NCBI GenBank assembly: GCA_964617715.1
Contig: CAZTZN010000008.1
Span: forward strand, 1-57,913
Length of the DNA stretch: 57,913 bases
Direction: 5' to 3'
Source: an uncultured Armatimonadia bacterium
GTDB lineage: Bacteria; Armatimonadota; Zipacnadia; Zipacnadales; UBA5352
Below, in pieces: positions 5,914-38,221 of this stretch. Position numbers and translations under genes: made by a program. Below the pieces are notes generated by a model. That model searched no databases and was not told the DNA's origin. It saw only the letters and a list, made by a program, of their open reading frames with translations. Positions within the stretch are counted from its first letter, which is position 1. Every line of letters begins with the position of its first letter.

Positions 5914-8900
5914 CTACTCCAGCCACAGCAGCCGGGTGGTTGACTCGGGCAGCGCGACCTCGAGGTGGTCGGCGTTGGCCGCCAGCACCTCGCCGGTCCA
6001 CGCATCGGTGACCGTCATCGGCCGGGGCAGCGCCACCGGCACCGTGCGGTCGCCGTCCCAGCCGCTGTGCAGCATCAGCATCCGATTGTCCGCGTCCAGC
6101 ACCACGTCCTCGTCGCAGTACAGGTGCACGCCCGCGTAGCGCGCCACCCCGCGCAGCAGCTCGCCGGTCATGCGTGGCACCGCACAGTAGACCGAGCGCC
6201 ACTCGCCCAGATCGCGCGCGGCGAAGGCGGGCTGGCCGTCCGGGTACGTGCCCAGCACGGTCGCCTCCGGGTCGTCGATGGCGAACACCGGGCCGAACTC
6301 CGGTGGGTGCAGCTTCACCGACAGGTCGTACCCGAAGGCCACGATCTTCACGCTTGTCCCGGGCTCTATCCCCGCGAGCACCGGGTGGTCTGATGCCACC
6401 GTCGCGTATTCCATCCACTCGCGCTCCGCGCGCTTGACCACCTTCATGCCGACCAGGTCGGAGATGCCCTCGACCGTCAGCCCGTCCTCGCGGCTCACAT
6501 AGCCGGGCGCGTAGAAGAACAGCAGGGTGCGCCCGTTGGACTTGAGCGCCTCGATGGCCGCGCGATCCTCGGCGCGCAGGAAGAAGGCGTTGAGGAAGAC
6601 GTAGAGCCGGTAGCCGTCGCGCACCTGCGGGTCGGCCAGATCGTCGAGGCAGTAGATGTCGTAGGGCGCGCCCAATTTGCCCATGCTCTCCCAGAGCGTA
6701 TACGGGATGAGGTTGTGGTAGATCGGCGCGGTGCGGTAGACGTCGTGGTAGTACATCGTGCGTCCGGTGGTGAACACCGCGATCTGAGCGGCGGACTCGC
6801 GCTCGCGCTCGATGGCCCGCATGTGCGCCGCGCGCGCCTGCTCAACGGCCCCCAGGATACCGGAATCGGTGAACCAGCCGACACTGTCGCGCCCCTCGCC
6901 GCGGCTCCAGTCGCTGAACCAGTAGCCCTGTCCGTCGATCATCATCCCGGCCATGTCGCGACGCATGACCGCTCGGGTCTCGCGCTCGGAGCGCATGCGC
7001 CCGTAGGTTTTCTGCGCGGCGATGAAGGTGCGGTGGTCGATCTCGCCCATGAACAACTTCCCGTGGATGCGCAGCGAGTCGGCGGAGTGCGACGTGTAGT
7101 ACGACGTGCCCGGGCGCCGGCTGGAGTAGGGCGTGGGCTCGGCGAAGAAGTCCCAGTTCGGATCCTGCAGGCGCTCGTACAGGTCGAAGTTGTTGTTCTG
7201 CAGCCACGCGCCCGGGGTATTGTAGCCACGCAGGTGCGCGACGTCGTAGCCGTAGTAGGTTCCCGCAAGCACCTCGCGCCCGGCCTCCTGCTTGACAATG
7301 CGCATCAGCTCCGCATTGAAGCGACCGACCACGCCCGACATCCACTCCGCATAGTCGAAGGTCATCGCGCTGCCCAGCGGATCGCGGAACACCCCGCCAT
7401 CCACACCCTCGGCCGCCAGCTCGCTCACCACCGGCGTCGCGGTCTCGAAGGTCAGTTCCGGATCGTGCCACGCCGCGCGCAGATCCGCGACTGAACCCGC
7501 GTACTTCGAGCGCAGCCACTCGCGGAAATCGGTGAGCGCCTGCGGATTGTAGTCGCCGAAGGTGAGCTGTGAGCGGTCCTCCTGGAACAGGTTGCTCTCG
7601 GTCCCGCCCATGACCGAGTCCGGAGAGCCGCACACGTAGGGCAGCCAGCCGATCACATGATCGGCATACGGACCCTCATGGACCCAGCGCACCAACCGGC
7701 GCAGGAAGTCGTGCACGCCCTCGGTGTACTTCGCCGATGAGAAGCAGATCGGCCCGAGCGCGCCCTGGGCGGTCACCAGGCGCTCGTCGGGGTTGCGCTC
7801 CAGCCACTCGCCCTCGGGTCGCAGGTCCGGGTTCACGATGAACAGCGCGTTCGGGTCGCTGCGCAGCGCCATCTCGAAGCGCTGGGTCAGGTGCGCGCAC
7901 ACCCGCTCGAAATGCCCGGGCACATCATCGTAGGACAGCGGCATGGTCTTGACGTGGTAAACCCGCACACCGGCGGCTGAGTAGTCGTGGTAGCGGCCAA
8001 ACGACGGCATGGTCATCGCCCAGGCGGTGGGCGGGACCGGGCGCGCGCCGAGGAGCCAGCGCCCGCGCCCTCCGGAGAAGTCGAGCGCCGCGCCGGGCAC
8101 TCCCACGCGATGCGCCGCGCCCGGCCGCTCGATGCTCAATGACGCGATGCTGTCGAGCGGCTCCCCGGTGGCATCCACGACCACCAGGGACGAGCCGTCG
8201 CTACCGCGTGCGCGCAGGTGCACGTGCGTCGCCCCCTGCGGCGCCCACGCCGGCAGATGAATCTCGCCGATCAGCGTGTACTCCTCGCCAGCCTGCCACT
8301 GCGAGGTCGATGGATCGGCCGCGACCGCGCAGCCGGCGATGAACATGTCGGTCCACGGGACCTCCAGCGGCGTGTCCCCCACCTCGATCGCGAACGCGAA
8401 GTCTTCCGTGAGCGCCGCGCGTGGGCTTACCGTCACCTCGACGCGCACCGTGTCTCCGGGCTGCGCGGTCTCGGGCGTCACGGTCGCGGCGCGCAGTTCG
8501 ACCTGCTCGACATTCCTGCCCCGCGGCATCGCTTCGAGGATCGGCTGCTCGGGGCCCGTCACCGCGAGCGTCGTCAGCTCCAGGCCCTCGGGCGCCTCCG
8601 CGTCGAGGATCACCCGCACGCGGTCGGTCTCCACTTCATCGAAGGTCACGCGCAACTCCGCCGCGTCGGCGGGGGCATCGGCCACTTTCGCGACCGGCTC
8701 CCAGCGATCGGCGAGCCACGCGAGCACCGTCAGCGCCGCCACGTGCCCCGGCTCGGTCTGTCGGACGACCACGCCATCGACTCGGCGCGGCAGTCTCCAA
8801 CGCACGTCCAGCCACTGCGGCAGGTCGCCGGTGAGCGGCATCCAGGTGCTGGCCTCGCGTCCGTCAATCAGGTTGTCGGGATAATGCGTCTCCAGGTCCG

Positions 8901-9729
8901 CGAAGGACGAAGCCAGCACCCACGCGCCCTCGTCCGCGAGCGCCAGGTTGCCCTCGACCGGCGGCAGGCCGGTCTGCTGGGGGCGCTCGAAGGCCTCGGG
9001 CGGCGCCGCGGCGAGGGTCGCCTGATAGCGCGCACGGATCTGCTCAGCCCTCAGCGGCTCCGGCCAGATGGTGAACTCATCAATGGCCGTCTTCTCATCG
9101 CCCAGGTAGGCCCAGCCCGGGTAGGCGGTGCCGATGGCCAACTCCCAGCGGCCCTCAGCCGGGAGGGCAATCGCGGCCGCCTCGCCCGCAGCCTCGCCGT
9201 CAACAAACAGACGGTAGCGCGCGACATCCCAGGTGACCGCGAGGTGATGCCACTGCCCCTCTTCCCACGCGGGCGCGGGGACGCGGATGAGGGTGCTCTG
9301 ATCGGTGACGAGCGTGTTCTGCACCAGCAGTGCGACTTCGTCACTGTCCCAGAGCTTGTACAGGATCAGGCGCACGTAGCCGCGCTCGAGGTCCGCGAGC
9401 GCAAGGCGCGCGAAGAAGACGAAGTGCCGCGCCTGCGCGGGCGTCCAGTCCTGCGGTCGCACCCACATGCTCAGTGTGCCCTGCGGCGGGAAGAAGCCCT
9501 CGTTCAGGTAGTACGACAGGCGGTTCATGCCGCCGAGCACACGCGCCTGCCCCGTCAGTCCGGGGACATACGGTCCGTTCAGCGACGCGAAGCCGGTGAT
9601 CTGCCTGGGCGCGCCGAGGTTCAGTGTCGCCTCATCGCTCCCGTCGAAGGGCACGGCGAGCAGTGGCTCCTGCGCGCGGCAGAGGGTCGGGATGAGTGCG
9701 AGCGCGAGGGCAATCGCGACGCGGATCAT
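5914..9729 (-). CDS. Secreted multidomain glycoside hydrolase (LamG-like + discoidin-like + GH42/beta-galactosidase-like)
   Basis: Signal peptide; GTLSMWVRP/WHHLAVTWD/LFVDG/IDEFTIW LamG motifs; NLIDG..TW discoidin-like; FREWLRSKY..LRAAW GH42-like; GAPYDIY..YRLYVFLNAF trimerisation-like domain. Confidence 0.75.
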   Translation of the reverse strand: MIRVAIALALALIPTLCRAQEPLLAVPFDGSDEATLNLGAPRQITGFASLNGPYVPGLTGQARVLGGMNRLSYYLNEGFFPPQGTLSMWVRPQDWTPAQARHFVFFARLALADLERGYVRLILYKLWDSDEVALLVQNTLVTDQSTLIRVPAPAWEEGQWHHLAVTWDVARYRLFVDGEAAGEAAAIALPAEGRWELAIGTAYPGWAYLGDEKTAIDEFTIWPEPLRAEQIRARYQATLAAAPPEAFERPQQTGLPPVEGNLALADEGAWVLASSFADLETHYPDNLIDGREASTWMPLTGDLPQWLDVRWRLPRRVDGVVVRQTEPGHVAALTVLAWLADRWEPVAKVADAPADAAELRVTFDEVETDRVRVILDAEAPEGLELTTLAVTGPEQPILEAMPRGRNVEQVELRAATVTPETAQPGDTVRVEVTVSPRAALTEDFAFAIEVGDTPLEVPWTDMFIAGCAVAADPSTSQWQAGEEYTLIGEIHLPAWAPQGATHVHLRARGSDGSSLVVVDATGEPLDSIASLSIERPGAAHRVGVPGAALDFSGGRGRWLLGARPVPPTAWAMTMPSFGRYHDYSAAGVRVYHVKTMPLSYDDVPGHFERVCAHLTQRFEMALRSDPNALFIVNPDLRPEGEWLERNPDERLVTAQGALGPICFSSAKYTEGVHDFLRRLVRWVHEGPYADHVIGWLPYVCGSPDSVMGGTESNLFQEDRSQLTFGDYNPQALTDFREWLRSKYAGSVADLRAAWHDPELTFETATPVVSELAAEGVDGGVFRDPLGSAMTFDYAEWMSGVVGRFNAELMRIVKQEAGREVLAGTYYGYDVAHLRGYNTPGAWLQNNNFDLYERLQDPNWDFFAEPTPYSSRRPGTSYYTSHSADSLRIHGKLFMGEIDHRTFIAAQKTYGRMRSERETRAVMRRDMAGMMIDGQGYWFSDWSRGEGRDSVGWFTDSGILGAVEQARAAHMRAIERERESAAQIAVFTTGRTMYYHDVYRTAPIYHNLIPYTLWESMGKLGAPYDIYCLDDLADPQVRDGYRLYVFLNAFFLRAEDRAAIEALKSNGRTLLFFYAPGYVSREDGLTVEGISDLVGMKVVKRAEREWMEYATVASDHPVLAGIEPGTSVKIVAFGYDLSVKLHPPEFGPVFAIDDPEATVLGTYPDGQPAFAARDLGEWRSVYCAVPRMTGELLRGVARYAGVHLYCDEDVVLDADNRMLMLHSGWDGDRTVPVALPRPMTVTDAWTGEVLAANADHLEVALPESTTRLLWLE

Positions 9730-9958
9730 GGGCGGCCTCCTGTCGGCGGGGTTGACGGGGACTTCGCCGGACGGAGGTTCGCGACCTGCGGCGCCCGGCG
9801 GCTGCCGCCCCCACCAACGCTCCGTCGCTCGCTCCGCGGGAGTCGTTGCCGTCGGTGGGGGCCCCCCTTCGCGCTGGACGCCATGCGTCGGCGCGAAGGG
9901 GGCGAGGGAGCTCAGCTACCGAGCAGTCGCCTGACCGGCCCGTCGTTCTGCCCGGCCA

Positions 9959-11392
9959 TCACGACCCCTCCGGGCGCACCAGGCGGCGCAGGCCCAGCCA
10001 CGCCAGCGCGAGGGCCCCGCCCCAGATCGGCAGGAAGACGATCACCCACGCGGCCACTGAGCCGAGACCGCGCAGCACGTGCCAGAAGCTGTGTCCCGCC
10101 GCGATGAAGGACGCGATGACGCCGACCGGCTGGGGCTCGCCCGCGTCCTGGCGCAGGGTCGCCGAAACGGTCGCGAGCGTGGTGCGCGCGTCGATCTCCC
10201 AGCTCTGATCCTGCGCCTGCGTGGTCTCCGCCTCGACCGCACCCAGGTTCTCCTCAGCGGCCACGCGCTGCTCGTCGTCGGCCATCTCGCGCACCATGTC
10301 CTCGAGCCGTTGCTCACGCTCGCGGGCGGCGGCGATCTGCCGTCGCGCCGCGACGTAGCCGGGCGTGAGGTCCTCGCCAGTGATCTCGCGATGCGCCACG
10401 AACCCGAGCGCCCCGAGCGCGTTGATGACGTTGCCGACCTCGGGCGTGGGGACCTTCATGGTCAGGCTGGCGAAGCCGCCCTCACCGTCAAGCCGCGAGC
10501 TGAGGATGAAGCCGCCGTACTCGTGGACCGCCGCCTCAGCCTGCAGCACCGCCTGGTAGAGGTTGTCCACGATCACTTCGACGGAGGCCACGTAGGCTAT
10601 CTTGAGGCGCTCGGCAATGCCGTAGCTGTGTTCCGGCGGCGCGAATCCGGTGGCCTGCAGGTCCGCCGGCGCATTGCGGCGATCGAACCACTTCACGTGC
10701 CCATCGACGAAGGCGTAGTTCGCGCCACCGTTGTGCGGGAAGACGGGCTGCCCGGTGCGATCGACCTCGTAGAGCAGCACCGTCCCCTCGTGGTTCTCGA
10801 TGTCCGCCAGGTCGCGCCCGGCCACCAGCGGGTTGATGGCGTAGTCCGGGACGTCGTCCGGCATCTGCGCCGGACAGTGGAAGATCTCCTCGTTCTGCAC
10901 ATACGGGAGGATATCGTCGTGCCAGGTCACGGCGCCGGGCAGGCGGTCGTCGTGGTCCTGGGCGAACATCTGGATGCCGAGGGCAAGCTGCTTCATGTTG
11001 CTCATGCACGCAGGCTGGCGCGCCTTTTCACGGCTCCGTGCGAAGGTCGGGAACAGAATGGCGGCGAGCACCGCCGCCATTCCGAAGGCGACCATGACTT
11101 CGATCAGGCGCTGGCCGCCGCTTACCCGTCGCTTCGCGCGGCGCTCCTGCGCCTCCGACTCCCGCGCCACGCGCACCATCACCGCGTCGGTCATGTCCTC
11201 GGCGTCATCGTCGCCGAGGTAGGCGCCGCGAAAGGCCTGCTCGTCGGCGCGCACCTGCTCCAGCCAGTCCCGGCAGCGCGCGCATTCGCGCAGGTGCAAC
11301 CGGACCAGCATGCGCTCGATCAGCCCGCACTCACCGTCGGCATACGCCGACACGCGCTCCATCCACTTCTCGCACGGCTGCGGGGCGGTCAT
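9959..11392 (-). CDS. Anti-sigma factor: zf-HC2 + prepilin-like/H-X9-DG domain + DUF4349-like domain
   Basis: HLRECARC (HxxxCxxC); LIEVMVAFGMAAVLAAILFPTFARSREKAR..CMSNMKQL; HNGGANYAFVDGHVKW; C-terminal DUF4349-like region plus TM helix; ATGA overlap with the sigma gene. Confidence 0.8.
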   Translation of the reverse strand: MTAPQPCEKWMERVSAYADGECGLIERMLVRLHLRECARCRDWLEQVRADEQAFRGAYLGDDDAEDMTDAVMVRVARESEAQERRAKRRVSGGQRLIEVMVAFGMAAVLAAILFPTFARSREKARQPACMSNMKQLALGIQMFAQDHDDRLPGAVTWHDDILPYVQNEEIFHCPAQMPDDVPDYAINPLVAGRDLADIENHEGTVLLYEVDRTGQPVFPHNGGANYAFVDGHVKWFDRRNAPADLQATGFAPPEHSYGIAERLKIAYVASVEVIVDNLYQAVLQAEAAVHEYGGFILSSRLDGEGGFASLTMKVPTPEVGNVINALGALGFVAHREITGEDLTPGYVAARRQIAAAREREQRLEDMVREMADDEQRVAAEENLGAVEAETTQAQDQSWEIDARTTLATVSATLRQDAGEPQPVGVIASFIAAGHSFWHVLRGLGSVAAWVIVFLPIWGGALALAWLGLRRLVRPEGS

Positions 11393-11916
11393 GAGCGCTC
11401 ACCTGCCTCTCCGGCCTCGGCCATCAGCTCGCGCAGGCGCTGTCGCGCCCGGCAGCAGCGCACGCGCACGTTGTTCACGGTCAGATTCATCTCGCGCGCG
11501 ATCTCGGCGTAGGACATCTCGCCGATGTAGCGCGCCGCCAGCATCTCACGGTCCTTGAGCGGAAGCATCCGCAGCAACTCGAGGGTCGGACCGCTCTCTG
11601 TCTGGGGCGGGTTGATACCGGGCAGAGGAGCGTCGTCGAGCGGGACTGTGTCGGTGTGCCGCTCGCGCAGGAAGGCGCGGCACTTGTTGCGCACGATGCC
11701 CACCAGCCAGCCGGCGAATTTCTCGGGCTCGCGCAGCGTATCCAGCGCGCGCCAGGCATCGACCAGCGCGTCCTGGGCGATGTCGCGCGCCGCCTCGCGG
11801 TCGCCGATGAGATGATGGGCCGTCGCCACCGCGGTGCGCTGGTGCCGCTGCACGAGCAGCGCGTAGGCGTCCGCGTTGCCTGCAAGCACCTGTCTCACCA
11901 CCTGGGCGTCAGTCAT
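11389..11916 (-). CDS. ECF RNA polymerase sigma-70 factor
   Basis: ARDIAQDALVDAW, FAGWLVGIVRNKC (region 2); LPLKDREMLAARYIGEMSYAEIA..VRVRCCRARQRL (region 4). Confidence 0.93.
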   Translation of the reverse strand: MTDAQVVRQVLAGNADAYALLVQRHQRTAVATAHHLIGDREAARDIAQDALVDAWRALDTLREPEKFAGWLVGIVRNKCRAFLRERHTDTVPLDDAPLPGINPPQTESGPTLELLRMLPLKDREMLAARYIGEMSYAEIAREMNLTVNNVRVRCCRARQRLRELMAEAGEAGERS

Positions 11917-12049
11917 CTGCCCTCACTGCGACTGTGTGCAGTCGCCCTGTGACCGAGGGTGTGTGTGGTCACCCGTAAAGTGTGGCGGCGCGGCGCGATC
12001 ATTACACGATTTCACACACCGGCCTGCGAAAACCTGCGGGGCAAGGCAA

Positions 12050-12076
12050 CGGGCCCGGCCGATATGGCCGGGCCCG
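12050..12076 (-). terminator. GC hairpin downstream of the lipoprotein gene, possible terminator
   Basis: Perfect 11-bp stem cgggcccggcc-gatat-ggccgggcccg; only a weak U tract. Confidence 0.5.
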
Positions 12077-12101: not shown

Positions 12102-13295
12102 CTACTTGCCGCTGTCGGCAGCCGCAGCCTGCGCCGGCGTGCCGGATGGGTTTCTGAGCAACGTGGCGTCGTCGGGGGGGACCACGCTGACGGTGCCGTC
12201 GGCGGCGACCACGACATCGAACGGTCGCCACCAGTTCGGTGGCTGAACGGGGTAGCCCTGACCGTTATCGGTCGTGAAGGTATGCGGCCCGAAAATGCGT
12301 ACCACGGAGTTCGCCGCCAGCCCGCCGGTCACCACACGTACGGTGACGCGGTACACGCTGTCCTCGTCGAGATCATAGCTGTTGATCGCGACATGGAAGC
12401 GGCCGGGCACGAGTGTGTGATTGGTGAAGTTCTCGGGGCCGAAACCCTCGGTATCATCGACATCCAGGCGCCCGGCATTGATGGTCATGTTCCAGTAGGC
12501 CGAGTGCTCCTCATCGGGTGCGGGCGACCACACGTGCAGGTCGGGGTCGCTGGTCGGCGTGTCCCAACTCAGGGTCACGCGGAAGTAAAAGTCGGAGCCC
12601 GCCGGCGGCGTCCAGTCCACACTGATCGGGTCGCTGATCACCGTGCAGGCCGCGTTCGACACCAGCACGCGGAAGACGTTCGTCCCGGGGTGCAGGAACG
12701 CGAGGTAGTCGAAGCTGCGCGCCCCCGCGACGACCGCCTCGGGCTGCATGTCGGTGAGGCCGGTCAGGGCCGGGTTGCCGTCCTGGAAGACGACCACGGT
12801 GTCGGCGTCGGTATTGGTCACCGTCCCGGTGATGTGGACCGTCCCGCCCGCGTCATCGACCGTCCCCGCAGCGGCCGTGATGACCGAACACTCCGAGGGG
12901 TTGATCTCGGTCCGCTCGTCCATCACGACGTCCTCAGTCTGGTTCTCGCCGGTGACGTTGATGATCCTGTACTCGGTGGCGTACCCGGCTGCCGCCACGG
13001 TCATGGCGTAGGTGCCCGCCGGCAGGCCGGAGACACAGAAACGACCGTTCTCGTCGGTCGCAATGCGTTCGGATGCCTCGGTGCCCTCCTGCAGGCCGAT
13101 GTAGACCTGCGCACCGGCGATGGGCACGTCCTCGCTGTTCGTCACGGTCCCGCAGAGCTGCCCTGCGAGTATTTCGCCGTTGGGTGAGGGCAGCGTAGGC
13201 CCGAAGCCGCCACTGCAGCCCGCCAGTATCACCAGGCCCGCAAGGACGGCAATCGCGGCGACTTTCATTGGTGTGCCTGTCGGTTGGTCCATCAT
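12102..13295 (-). CDS. Lipoprotein with carboxypeptidase-regulatory-like and YfaP/DUF2135-like domains
   Basis: Lipobox LAGC; PIAGAQV..TDENGRF..GLPAGTY; VTLSWD..DPDLHV..GRLDVDDTEGFGPENF. Confidence 0.75.
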   Translation of the reverse strand: MMDQPTGTPMKVAAIAVLAGLVILAGCSGGFGPTLPSPNGEILAGQLCGTVTNSEDVPIAGAQVYIGLQEGTEASERIATDENGRFCVSGLPAGTYAMTVAAAGYATEYRIINVTGENQTEDVVMDERTEINPSECSVITAAAGTVDDAGGTVHITGTVTNTDADTVVVFQDGNPALTGLTDMQPEAVVAGARSFDYLAFLHPGTNVFRVLVSNAACTVISDPISVDWTPPAGSDFYFRVTLSWDTPTSDPDLHVWSPAPDEEHSAYWNMTINAGRLDVDDTEGFGPENFTNHTLVPGRFHVAINSYDLDEDSVYRVTVRVVTGGLAANSVVRIFGPHTFTTDNGQGYPVQPPNWWRPFDVVVAADGTVSVVPPDDATLLRNPSGTPAQAAAADSGK

Positions 13296-37632: not shown

Positions 37633-37678
37633 GATCCCGCTCTCATCGTGTGCTATCTGACGCGAAAGGGTGGTCACG

Positions 37679-38221
37679 ATGTTCAGATCACGCGGACGGC
37701 GCCGGGGCTTCACGGCCGCTGAAGTGCTGGCGGTCACCGGCATCCTCACCAGCCTCGGCGGTGGCTCCTTCATCAACGTCACCGAGCAGGCGCACCGCAC
37801 CACCTGCCAGCAGCACCTGCATCAGATCGGCCTGGCCATCCAGATGCGCACCATGATGGACGAGCCGCTGCCACGCGCCTGGTTCTATCCGCCCGATCCG
37901 CCCCACCCGAATCGTATGACCTACCATCTCGCGCACGTGATGGCCGGTGAGGTGCCGGCGAGCATGTTCATCTGCCCCTCCGCGCCCTCGGCCATCCAGC
38001 GGCGCGGCATCTGCTACGTCTACAACAGCAACGTCGGGGGGAAGAGCATCGACGAGATCCCCAACCCATCGCAGACGTGGCTGATGATGGACGTCAACGT
38101 GGTGAGCGACCAGGTGCCCCCGGCCCACAACGGCGGGTGCAATGTCCTCTTTGTTGACGGCCACGTCAAGTGGTACCCGGCCAACCAGCTCCCCAGGTTC
38201 GAGCTGCCGACTCAAGGGTAG
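37679..38221 (+). CDS. Prepilin-type / H-X9-DG domain protein
   Basis: RRRG|FTAAE, TCQQHLHQIGLA, FICPS, HNGGCNVLFVDGHVKW. Confidence 0.85.
   Translation: MFRSRGRRRGFTAAEVLAVTGILTSLGGGSFINVTEQAHRTTCQQHLHQIGLAIQMRTMMDEPLPRAWFYPPDPPHPNRMTYHLAHVMAGEVPASMFICPSAPSAIQRRGICYVYNSNVGGKSIDEIPNPSQTWLMMDVNVVSDQVPPAHNGGCNVLFVDGHVKWYPANQLPRFELPTQG

Follow-up and report, generated by a model that had tools for sequence, protein, structure and literature searches.

The gene pair described here encodes an ECF sigma factor and an anti-sigma factor whose first membrane helix (TM1) and adjoining head domain are of pilin ancestry, both by sequence and by model fold. The favored reading, which is held with reasonable though far from full confidence, is that a signal anchor and sensor module of pilin descent, no longer cleaved, have been built into a two-pass ZAS anti-sigma factor that is conventional in other respects. 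The pair lies in a window of 57,913 nucleotides, which is the whole stretch of DNA analyzed, and consists of the following features.

11389 to 11916, reverse strand: ECF (group IV) sigma factor gene, 175 amino acids, an open reading frame with Sigma70_r2 and Sigma70_r4_2
9959 to 11392, reverse strand: anti-sigma factor gene, 477 amino acids, predicted two-pass membrane protein with both termini cytoplasmic
11135 to 11392, reverse strand: cytoplasmic ZAS (class I) anti-sigma domain, residues 1-86, with zf-HC2 at residues 7-41 (11270-11374)
10955 to 11116, reverse strand: pilin-type alpha1 helix, residues 93-146, the N-terminal half of which is TM1 with a degenerate class III signal
10673 to 11032, reverse strand: compact DUF1559 head, residues 121-240, with H-X9-DG at residues 219-236 (10685-10738)
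9998 to 10603, reverse strand: DUF4349 domain (PF14257), residues 264-465, beta-alpha-beta units and a long helical hairpin
9995 to 10072, reverse strand: TM2, approximately residues 441-466, followed by the basic cytoplasmic tail RRLVRPEGS (3 K+R)

The sigma factor and the zinc anti-sigma domain

The two open reading frames share 4 nt, which read ATGA. Pfam places Sigma70_r2 at residues 21-86 of the sigma protein and Sigma70_r4_2 at residues 112-161, with no match to region 3. The NCBIfam superfamily model TIGR02937 (sigma70-ECF) matches with 73.6 bits (cut-off 42.9), and all specific NCBIfam sigma models score under their cut-offs. With regions 2 and 4 only and a superfamily-model match, the protein is an ECF (group IV) sigma factor. 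The sequence-only reading had proposed such a sigma gene overlapping, by ATGA, the gene of a zinc anti-sigma factor, and the reading frames, the overlap, and the Pfam domains all agree with it.

In the 477-amino-acid protein, the zf-HC2 match scores 37.7 bits in Pfam (cut-off 22.2, E 2.2e-9). Its zinc motif is H33-x3-C37-x2-C40, each residue of which is conserved in at least 90% of 32 sequences, and the AlphaFold2 model folds the region into four helices (8-18, 24-36, 38-58, and 67-86). An HxxxCxxC motif inside a four-helix anti-sigma domain identifies the N-terminal domain as ZAS. Modeling of the sigma:anti-sigma complex, which had been suggested as a check, gave a predicted pairing: sigma with residues 1-90 scored 0.77 in three of three runs against 0.08 for the best of three controls, although this is a textbook pair and the high score may reflect likeness to solved complexes. 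Of 80 solved complexes, 58 pass the mark used for such scores, as do 2 of 110 mismatched pairs. The runs had at least 96% of contacts in common and a partner pLDDT of at least 82, and the contacts fell on sigma regions 2 and 4, between which the anti-sigma domain is predicted to sit.

Pilin ancestry of the membrane helix and head

A Kyte-Doolittle profile (19-residue window) contains two hydrophobic segments, with window starts at 94-101 and 436-451, and basic residues border them on the N-terminal and C-terminal (cytoplasmic) sides. In the AlphaFold2 model of the whole protein (mean pLDDT 84), the helix at 94-146 is unbroken over 53 residues. With a slash marking the class III cut position, the TM1 region reads G93/QRLIE98...ILFPTFARSREKA, and the sequence across the site is ...ERRAKRRVSG-G93/Q-R-L-I-E98-VMVAFGMAAVLAAILFPTFARSREKARQ. 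Here G93 is position -1, Q94 and R95 are +1 and +2, E98 (codon 11099-11101) is +5, and P115 is +22; E98 and P115 are conserved in the family alignment. As in pilins, Glu+5 lies in a hydrophobic alpha1N helix of about 21 residues. The other pilin signatures are lacking: the motif is preceded by 92 residues forming a folded zinc-finger domain instead of a short N-terminal leader (6-26 amino acids), and QR stands at +1/+2 where pilins have F or M at +1 and a PF07963 match. N_methyl PF07963 has no match in the protein at E up to 1 in Pfam, which agrees with the replacement of FT by QR. NCBIfam GspG, PilA, and prepilin models give weak, sub-cut-off matches at residues 93-147.

A motif scan of the same genome caught 27 canonical DUF1559 paralogues. 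All 27 carry FTLIE directly after a G or A at -1 (G in 26, A in 1), behind short leaders, and all 27 start with [G/A]FTLIELLVVIAIIAILAAILFPVFA[RK]AREKA. TM1 together with the following ILFPTFARSREKARQ agrees with this invariant N-terminus, and the pilin likeness of TM1 is far above chance.

The head belongs to the DUF1559/H-X9-DG family, with both models above cut-off: SBP_bac_10/DUF1559 PF07596 at residues 121-152 (Pfam, 33.3 bits, cut-off 23.3) and H-X9-DG TIGR04294 at residues 219-236 (NCBIfam, 28.4 bits, cut-off 19). Only the N-terminal 31 of the 268 PF07596 model positions align, so the head is a compact version of the domain. When residues 88-255 were folded alone (pLDDT 86.8), they formed a helix followed by a small four-stranded beta-sheet, that is, the "lollipop" fold of pilins, in which an alpha1 of about 50 residues stands on a beta-sheet head. 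A wide VIA structure search with this segment (48,161 chains) returned only pilins and pseudopilins among its best 16 matches. Thermus PilA4 (6xxd_A) came first with a Z of 7.3, an rmsd of 3.6 A, and 123 aligned residues, and the eight chains with Z of at least 5 were all pilins; all Z values are moderate and below 8, in the range where common arrangements can score. Foldseek gave no match at E of 0.001 or less, either for the whole model, where the top row was a gonococcal pilin, or for residues 88-255, where pilins made up seven of the top eight rows.

The DUF4349 domain is a near full-length PF14257 match (Pfam, 104.6 bits, cut-off 27.7, E 6e-30, model positions 2-212 of 213) that ends in a C-terminal TM helix. 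The TM2 region is modeled as helices 425-452 and 454-471, and W449 and W457 are nearly invariant. No convincing solved relative of the DUF4349 fold was found with the whole 477-residue model, the VIA matches being coiled coils on the hairpin, and residues 255-477 brought up just 22 close relatives in a word-index search. Taken together, the Pfam and NCBIfam matches and the hydrophobicity profile bear out the domain order that had been read from the sequence, in which a pilin alpha1N as first membrane helix precedes a DUF1559/H-X9-DG head, DUF4349, and a second TM. The proposed HMM scan likewise found zf-HC2, DUF1559/H-X9-DG, and DUF4349 above their cut-offs; N_methyl was the model absent.

A conserved family, its Glu+5, and its probably lost cleavage site

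Full-length genes of the same architecture occur in 11 of 301 sampled Armatimonadota genomes (this one and 10 others). All three Pfam domains are present in 29 of the 120 matches listed, at 29-84% identity, and the named sources are all Armatimonadota. In each of the 11 loci that include upstream DNA, the gene immediately before the anti-sigma homologue encodes a sigma homologue. The fusion is therefore a conserved family with its ECF synteny kept, as the sequence-only reading needed it to be. An assembly chimera is ruled out by the same architecture on many contigs and sources and in the 10 other genomes. A related-locus search keyed on the pilin-core peptide yielded mostly ordinary DUF1559 paralogues, with L003 as the only full-length match.

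The modules also occur apart. The compact DUF1559 head follows zinc-ribbon/DUF4190 multi-TM anchors or other N-terminal domains, or stands in tandem, in P0037, P0039, and P0041-46, and it follows other anchors in this genome too (contigs C158, C251, and C43). In a profile search for DUF4349 architectures elsewhere, ZAS-TM-DUF4349 proteins with an ordinary TM and without the head are represented by P0159, P0167, and P0174, and those with pilin-helix remnants only by P0146, P0147, P0160, P0173, and P0197. Contig C68 of this genome carries a second ECF sigma gene followed by the gene of an N-domain-TM-DUF4349-TM protein, and the standard DUF4349 lipoprotein version is encoded on contig C43.

The two hallmark residues of the class III signal have different histories in this family. 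Glu+5 is kept in 29 of 32 close and 19 of 25 distant members, and Gly-1 in only 3 of 32 and 4 of 25, respectively. At position -1, the 32 aligned members have Arg (12), Thr (6), Ser (5), or Gly (3) as the main residues, Arg being the commonest. Gly-1 thus occurs in 7 of 57 members including this protein, which is close to the general background frequency of glycine. The conservation of Gly-1 that is seen in type IV pilins does not extend to the family, although G93 is present here. The sequence-only reading had named a lack of conservation of these two residues in homologues as a ground for refuting it; the outcome is split, with Glu+5 largely kept and Gly-1 largely lost. These alignments indicate that the family has probably lost the pilin cleavage site, and cleavage may occur in some members, given Gly-1 in this protein and six others. 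A mere anchor needs no buried acidic residue, so TM1 probably still performs some pilin-like role, which the favored reading leaves unexplained. TM positions beside Glu+5 vary, and DUF1559-head fusions with other anchors lack Glu+5.

The persistence of Glu+5 despite the lost cleavage features speaks for a pilin decoy or mimic, one of the two mechanisms offered in the sequence-only reading. In such a mechanism, uncleaved TM1 would use Glu+5 and its alpha1N surface to bind, within the membrane, either to mature DUF1559 pilins or to the platform that assembles type IV filaments. Glu5 normally pairs with the free N-terminal amine of mature pilins. The hold on the sigma factor would then depend on how much pilin is unassembled or on how active the machine is. 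A review describes Glu5 as not needed for processing but needed for assembly into homopolymeric filaments, where it is modeled in a salt bridge to Phe1 of the neighboring subunit (PMC4471445). TM-helix contacts are described as the means by which PleC, and PilS as cited there, sense the pool of pilins in the inner membrane (PMC7196804). In this genome there are 51 DUF1559 matches and 2 matches to prepilin peptidase (Peptidase_A24), and small DUF1559-like genes adjoin the pair in four related loci (L003, L093, L095, and L087). However, when eight of these neighboring small genes were translated, most lacked G-1/E+5 and only the first of L093 (G/INAGE) had that spacing, so most are probably not real pilins. 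TM1 positions +6 to +16 are unlike the invariant LLVVIAIIAIL of canonical pilins, and no pilin or pilus-machinery gene occurs in the operon within the window. In all 29 members with Glu+5, an Arg stands at +2 or -1 and could neutralize the Glu within the helix. More simply, the helix may be a leftover that came with the DUF1559 module, whose head is also found behind unrelated anchors. The decoy mechanism is given a low but appreciable probability.

The other mechanism offered in the sequence-only reading is release of the anti-sigma domain by prepilin peptidase (PilD). The enzyme would cut behind G93 on the cytoplasmic side, so that the zinc domain leaves the membrane, alone or together with its sigma factor. 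The known requirements for processing do not fit it: the same review calls the final Gly of the leader "absolutely critical" and gives leader lengths of 6-26 amino acids (PMC4471445), whereas in this protein a folded domain of 92 residues would have to serve as "leader". This protein does have basic residues, Gly-1, and Glu+5 at the correct spacing, the genome has two Peptidase_A24 genes, and the distant members P0121 and P0134 carry the motif in perfect form (G/FTLVE in P0121, G/FRLIE in P0134). Against this stand the scarcity of Gly-1, with Ser or Thr at -1 already in P0003 and P0004 at 72-74% identity, and the unmatched N_methyl family. A cut would moreover free, not destroy, the anti-sigma domain, and so would not by itself release the sigma factor. 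PilD cleavage as a family mechanism is rejected because of the Gly-1 counts, and a release of the domain by this route is highly improbable.

A thiol or redox switch as in RsrA, in which oxidation of HxxxCxxC frees the sigma factor and the membrane and outward parts only localize the protein, gains from the near invariance of the motif and from a weak match to the RsrA model TIGR03988 (E 7.9e-5), but it is very doubtful given a score of 22.7 bits against a cut-off of 62.5, C7 and C22 that are not conserved in distant members, and an outward loop of about 330 residues whose many invariant positions argue for sensing outside the cytoplasm. Most ZAS domains are not known to be redox sensors.

Proposed signaling and relation to known systems

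The preferred reading of an uncleaved pilin-derived anchor and sensor leads to the following scheme. The sigma factor would be kept at the membrane through its predicted binding to the ZAS-type anti-sigma factor, with the zinc domain and the short C-terminal tail in the cytoplasm and a loop of about 330 residues facing outward. This loop would present the compact DUF1559/H-X9-DG pilin-fold head and then DUF4349. TM1 would be the alpha1N of an ancestral DUF1559 pseudopilin that was recruited along with its head. With its prepilin-peptidase site decayed, it would now hold the protein in the membrane as a signal anchor that is not cut. An envelope cue sensed by the outward loop would free the sigma factor, most likely by a cut in the loop followed by an intramembrane cut of TM1 by an RseP-type site-2 protease; proteolytic release is assumed here from the usual route of membrane ZAS anti-sigma factors. 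Peptidase_M50 has four matches in the genome, the best of them on contig C72 (E 1.3e-54). The freed sigma factor would then act on its own promoter and probably also on the gene of a 1271-residue lectin-domain protein. The flanking features are listed below.

12051 to 12075, reverse strand: GC-rich hairpin (GGGCCCGGCC...GGCCGGGCCC), placed after the upstream gene and before the promoter-like motif
11973 to 12012, reverse strand: promoter-like motif upstream of the sigma gene, AAATCG-TGTAATG-N17-CACTTTACGG
5914 to 9729, reverse strand: downstream gene, 1271 amino acids, after a 229-nt gap, with Laminin_G_3 and F5/8 type C domains

The promoter-like motif consists of blocks conserved in an alignment of six orthologous upstream regions, from which a promoter function can be inferred. 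In the 5.08-Mb genome, the strict pattern has two matches (this site and one on C90) and looser patterns have two and three, and none of the ECF consensus sequences tried matched the motif. The arms of the hairpin are conserved in six of six aligned upstream regions, and it is probably the terminator of the upstream gene; the consensus terminator scan made no call there. The consensus promoter and terminator scan gave nothing relevant, and its two terminator-like matches inside the TM1 coding sequence are chance GC-rich repeats. After the anti-sigma stop, RNA folding yields a 12-bp GC-rich hairpin with no U-tract, and the z-score of the whole stretch (-1.12) is like that of shuffles. The 1271-residue protein has a signal-peptide-like start. 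Its C-terminal 752 residues fit no known family: they had no counterpart among solved structures at E of 0.01 or less, and their NCBIfam matches were weak and below threshold. L003 and L094 have a homologue of this gene after the anti-sigma gene, seven more distant loci with downstream DNA lack it, and membership in the same operon or regulon is possible.

Much envelope signaling runs through ECF sigma/anti-sigma pairs, in which the outward part of the anti-sigma factor sets the cue. Few protein families are as expanded in Armatimonadota and Planctomycetota as DUF1559, and a regulator with one DUF1559 copy and a pilin helix offers a genetic handle on both DUF1559 and DUF4349. The cue that frees the sigma factor should reveal what DUF1559 heads bind, and the conserved Glu+5 in an uncleaved helix provides a clean, mutable test of pilin-helix contacts in signaling. 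The family also illustrates how a class III signal peptide can degenerate into a plain signal anchor after fusion to an N-terminal domain. If the decoy mechanism were true, sigma activity would report the pilin pool or filament assembly, the first case of a sigma/anti-sigma system coupled directly to the subunits of type IV filaments; it would also give a first functional handle on the DUF1559 family.

RsiW of Bacillus subtilis is a membrane-anchored ZAS (class I) anti-sigma factor of an ECF sigma factor. Like membrane ZAS anti-sigma factors in general, the present protein is encoded downstream of, and translationally coupled to, the ECF sigma gene, and it combines an N-terminal HxxxCxxC domain with a membrane helix and an outward sensor. 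The ECF classification records two-TM anti-sigma factors for 14 ECF groups (PMC7826278). Unlike known ZAS anti-sigma factors, it has a TM1 and a first outward domain that come from a DUF1559 pilin-like protein, followed by DUF4349. The main text of that classification contains no "pilin", "pilus", "Armatimonadetes", or DUF4349, and the only DUF4xxx domain met there is DUF4179 (PMC7826278). Titles and abstracts of the literature on DUF4349, DUF1559, H-X9-DG, and anti-sigma factors with pilins held no account of this architecture either, in line with the earlier view that it is undescribed.

The DUF1559/H-X9-DG "PulG-like" proteins of Planctomycetota and Armatimonadota share with it an alpha1 with ...ILFP[VT]FA[RK][SA]REKARQ, a conserved Cys after alpha1, a C-terminal H-X9-DG-H-x-K-W, and the pilin fold in the model. 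It departs from them in that its helix is preceded by a folded domain of 92 residues, QR replaces FT, Gly-1 is not conserved in the family, and a minimal head of about 120 residues is followed by DUF4349 and a second TM. [quoted passage not shown] In contrast to the stand-alone lipoproteins, DUF4349 forms the distal part of an anti-sigma factor here. By analogy with PilS and PleC (PMC7196804), the TM segment could contact the conserved alpha1N of pilins. PilS and PleC, however, are histidine kinases whose ordinary TM helices bind pilins, whereas in the present system the anti-sigma factor itself carries the pilin helix.

The sigma/anti-sigma pair and its family

The ECF sigma gene and the anti-sigma gene share an ATGA overlap, and the domains of the second product follow one another from a zinc domain to a second transmembrane helix:

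11389..11916, reverse strand: ECF sigma gene, ORF of 175 aa with Sigma70_r2 and Sigma70_r4_2 (Pfam)
9959..11392, reverse strand: anti-sigma gene, ORF of 477 aa
Residues 7-41 of the 477-aa protein: zf-HC2 (Pfam)
Residues 121-152: SBP_bac_10/DUF1559, N-terminal part of the family (Pfam)
Residues 219-236: H-X9-DG model (NCBIfam, above cut-off)
Residues 264-465: DUF4349 (Pfam)

The pilin-type helix starts as RRAKRRVSG-G93/QRLIE98-VMVAFGMAAVLAAILFPTFARSREKARQ, where the slash separates positions -1 and +1 of a class III signal. The N_methyl family of Pfam has no match in the 477-aa protein, and residues 93-147 give weak, sub-threshold matches to the GspG, PilA and prepilin models of NCBIfam. Two hydrophobic stretches are present (19-residue windows starting at residues 94-101 and 436-451), both bordered by basic residues on their predicted cytoplasmic sides. 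Every element named in the sequence-only reading, from the sigma gene to the second TM, was thus recovered by ORF calling, Pfam, NCBIfam and hydrophobicity.

In each of three runs the predicted complex of the sigma factor and anti-sigma residues 1-90 received a score of 0.77, versus 0.08 for the best of three controls; because sigma/anti-sigma complexes are already solved, this score shows likeness and is not proof of binding. Of 80 solved complexes 58 reach the mark for this score, as do 2 of 110 mismatched pairs. The three runs share at least 96% of their contacts, with a partner pLDDT of at least 82, and the predicted contacts involve sigma region 2 (residues 15-56) and region 4 (residues 111-165). 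The genome has 10 zf-HC2 matches at about nine loci; of these, this anti-sigma factor alone has the pilin core.

The fusion is a true architecture and not a chimera unique to the assembly. In a word-index search, zf-HC2, DUF1559 and DUF4349 occur together in 29 of the 120 best hits, at 29-84% identity, and the source, where named among these 120, is Armatimonadota every time. An even sample of the phylum contained a match at E <=1e-35 in 11 of 301 genomes, the own genome included; at the same threshold, matches occur in 8 of 238 high-quality genomes of the phylum and in 4 of 10 other genomes of the window's own family. About 30 full-length clusters rank first in a profile search of 1.84 billion representatives, where variant architectures are also present. 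The linkage to an ECF sigma gene likewise holds among homologues, since tblastn placed a sigma homologue directly upstream of the anti-sigma gene in 11/11 fetched loci holding upstream DNA (L003, L084-L093; the contigs of L091 and L093 hold only the end of the sigma gene, and L094 and L095, C-terminal pieces only, were left out).

Two homologues are irregular. In the named MAG of locus L003 (6001-7367, forward strand), the anti-sigma orthologue shifts frame near residue 336, giving two tblastn pieces in different frames, and the called ORF ends in an Arg/Ser-rich tail; either the gene is frameshifted or the sequence contains an error. In the homologue P0019, 77% identical to the query across its first 58%, DUF4349 gives way after about residue 277 to a CARDB-like domain and another type of TM tail; it represents a domain swap or else a chimera of the contig.

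Pilin ancestry and modular relatives

The window's genome (5.08 Mb, 380 contigs, 94.8% complete) has 51 DUF1559 and 2 prepilin peptidase matches, the two Peptidase_A24 genes lying on contigs C20 and C109. A motif scan of six-frame ORFs found the pilin core in 28 proteins. In twenty-seven of them a leader of between a few and about 23 residues is followed by [G/A]FTLIELLVVIAIIAILAAILFPVFA[RK]AREKA, with Gly at -1 in 26 and Ala in 1; a long N-terminal extension is seen in the anti-sigma factor alone. The whole anti-sigma factor was modelled by AlphaFold2 with a pLDDT of 84, showing an unbroken helix at 94-146, then short helices and four strands. Residues 88-255 modelled alone (pLDDT 86.8, pTM 0.75) were searched, with no prefilter, against 48,161 solved chains. 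Type IV pilins or pseudopilins filled all of the top 16 rows, led by Thermus PilA4 (6xxd_A; Z 7.3, rmsd 3.6 A, 123 aligned residues), with EpsG (Z 6.4) and PulG (Z 5.4) further down; all 8 chains with Z >= 5 were pilins. As the Z values are moderate and Foldseek with the anti-sigma models returned only E-values >0.001 against solved structures, the fold evidence backs the sequence evidence and does not stand alone. Taken together, the motif and the models indicate that TM1 and the head are pilin-derived.

The compact head extends from about [RK]xKAxxxxCxSNxKQ to H-X9-DG-H-x-K-W. In this lineage it is also found without a pilin helix, and heads on non-pilin anchors retain only the distal helix part "AAILFPVFARAREKA", the Glu being absent.

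Other arrangements of the head, the helix and DUF4349 (P, protein representatives; C, contigs of the window's genome, G000; ZAS, class I zinc anti-sigma domain)
P0041, P0046: head behind a zinc ribbon and DUF4190 multi-TM anchor
P0037, P0042, P0043, C158: head behind DUF4190-type or other multi-TM N-terminal parts
C251, C43: head terminating larger secreted or anchored proteins
P0037, P0039: heads in tandem
P0159, P0167, P0174: ZAS-TM-DUF4349-TM, ordinary TM, no head
P0146, P0147, P0160, P0173, P0197: ZAS-TM-DUF4349-TM, helix remnants only
P0149, P0161, P0200, P0236, P0239, P0254: ZAS-helix-head without DUF4349, about 250-275 aa, some maybe fragments
C68 (locus L098, 1456-3295, reverse strand): second ECF sigma gene and an overlapping gene encoding an N-terminal part, ordinary TM, long linker, DUF4349 and C-terminal TM
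C43 (21908-24452, forward strand): DUF4349 lipoprotein gene and, 115 nt later, a 481-aa protein ending in the compact DUF1559 head

A search for zf-HC2 in the C68 protein gave no match; the protein probably belongs to another class of anti-sigma factor, of the DUF4349 type. The headless and variant ZAS-DUF4349 proteins, together with the C68 pair, therefore mark DUF4349 as an outward module that recurs among anti-sigma factors here, and the pilin helix with its head looks like an accreted module. The adjacency on C43 of DUF4349 and a DUF1559 head, which are fused in the anti-sigma factor, hints at joint action. The window also encodes a divergent prepilin-like DUF1559 protein (37661-38218, forward strand) whose short basic leader is followed by G/FTAAE, an unusual helix and, at the end, H-X9-DG; its identity to the anti-sigma head domain is 31%.

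The cleavage site and the probable mode of action

Conservation around the cleavage site was followed in 32 members, with the register counted back from the conserved Glu; P0015, P0019, P0020, P0022, P0024 and P0038 were left out as partial or having another C-terminus.

Residues around the cleavage site in 32 members
Position -1: Arg 12, Thr 6, Ser 5, Gly 3, Val 2; Ile, Ala, Phe and Trp 1 each
Position +1: variable; Phe 7, Gly 7, Ser 4, Gln 3; seven other residues 1-2 each
Position +2: Arg 21
Position +5: Glu 29

A distant set was formed by 25 of 141 further representatives, those in which HxxxCxxC lies within residues 1-80 and more than 60 residues precede the pilin core. Glu+5 occurs in 19 of these and Gly-1 in 4, the register being a fixed spacing from the FP motif that is uncertain in the 6 members without Glu. 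Ser or Thr already stands at -1 in relatives of 72-74% identity. Passages of a review (PMC4471445) describe the last Gly of the leader as "absolutely critical" for prepilin processing and Glu5 as "always dispensable for processing"; Glu5 mutants form no homopolymeric filaments, and models pair Glu5 with Phe1 of the next subunit by a salt bridge. With Gly-1 rare and Glu+5 kept, these roles imply that the family no longer has the residue required for cleavage and retains the one required between subunits. The expected joint conservation of both residues thus stood for Glu+5 and failed for Gly-1.

The protein is probably a conventional two-pass ZAS anti-sigma factor. TM1, of pilin origin and uncleaved, would serve as a signal anchor, the outward DUF1559 head and DUF4349 would sense an envelope cue, and the sigma factor would be released by regulated proteolysis. 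M50 site-2 proteases are encoded in the genome, one of them on contig C72. This reading gives no account of the conserved Glu+5. All 29 aligned members having Glu+5 carry Arg at +2 or -1, which could neutralise it within the helix; Glu+5 could also aid intramembrane cleavage.

A less likely explanation is that Glu+5 maintains contact in the manner of pilins, either with mature pilins or with the assembly platform, for which pilin-pool sensing by PleC and PilS, as described in passages of PMC7196804, would be an analogy. Release of the anti-sigma domain by prepilin peptidase, one of two alternatives proposed in the sequence-only reading, is very improbable: a few members keep a perfect site (for example P0121, G/FTLVE) and the protein encoded here has Gly-1, so single members may be cut, but the loss of Gly-1 across the family (present in 3/32 and 4/25) rules out PilD cleavage as a conserved mechanism. 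A pure redox switch is just as improbable.

Genomic surroundings and comparison with known systems

A GC-rich hairpin upstream of the sigma gene probably ends the preceding gene. It is followed, at 11973-12012, by AAATCG-TGTAATG-N17-CACTTTACGG, which is conserved in six orthologous upstream regions; the strict pattern matches twice in the genome, here and on contig C90. The block is a candidate for the sigma factor's own promoter.

12102-13295, reverse strand: upstream gene, lipoprotein-like protein with a CarboxypepD_reg domain
9860-9903, reverse strand: GC-rich hairpin of 12 bp, inner stem of 5 bp, about 55 nt past the anti-sigma stop, no U-tract
5914-9729, reverse strand: downstream gene, 1271-aa secreted-looking protein with Laminin_G_3 and F5/8 type C, 229 nt past the anti-sigma gene
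L003 7376-8942, L093 1657-3251, L095 662-1216, L087 3507-4025: small DUF1559 genes (150-200 aa, compact heads) beside the pair in other loci

A CarboxypepD_reg gene precedes the sigma gene in L084 and L085 too, with the conserved hairpin in between. The downstream hairpin may act as a terminator or as an RNA element; taken as a whole, the stretch around it has a fold energy no different from that of shuffles. The C-terminal ~750 aa of the 1271-aa protein match no Pfam or NCBIfam family and, by sequence, no solved structure, and only the closest relatives, L003 and L094, have its gene at this place downstream of the pair. Behind the anti-sigma gene, L003, L093 and L095 carry between one and three small DUF1559-like genes, and L087 carries one upstream of the sigma gene. 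Most of their products have plain signal anchors without G-1/E+5, the first of L093 having G/INAGE spacing; these genes may be partners or targets of the system.

Full-text searches on DUF4349, on DUF1559, on H-X9-DG and on anti-sigma together with prepilin or pilin-like wording found no published description of the architecture. In the main text of the ECF re-classification (PMC7826278), "pilin", "pilus", "Armatimonadetes" and DUF4349 do not occur and DUF4179 is the sole DUF4xxx domain met in its passages; a supplementary listing of the group is possible. ECF sigma factors paired with ZAS anti-sigma factors are well known and of the same overall kind, whereas the sensor and anchor of the anti-sigma factor are new here.
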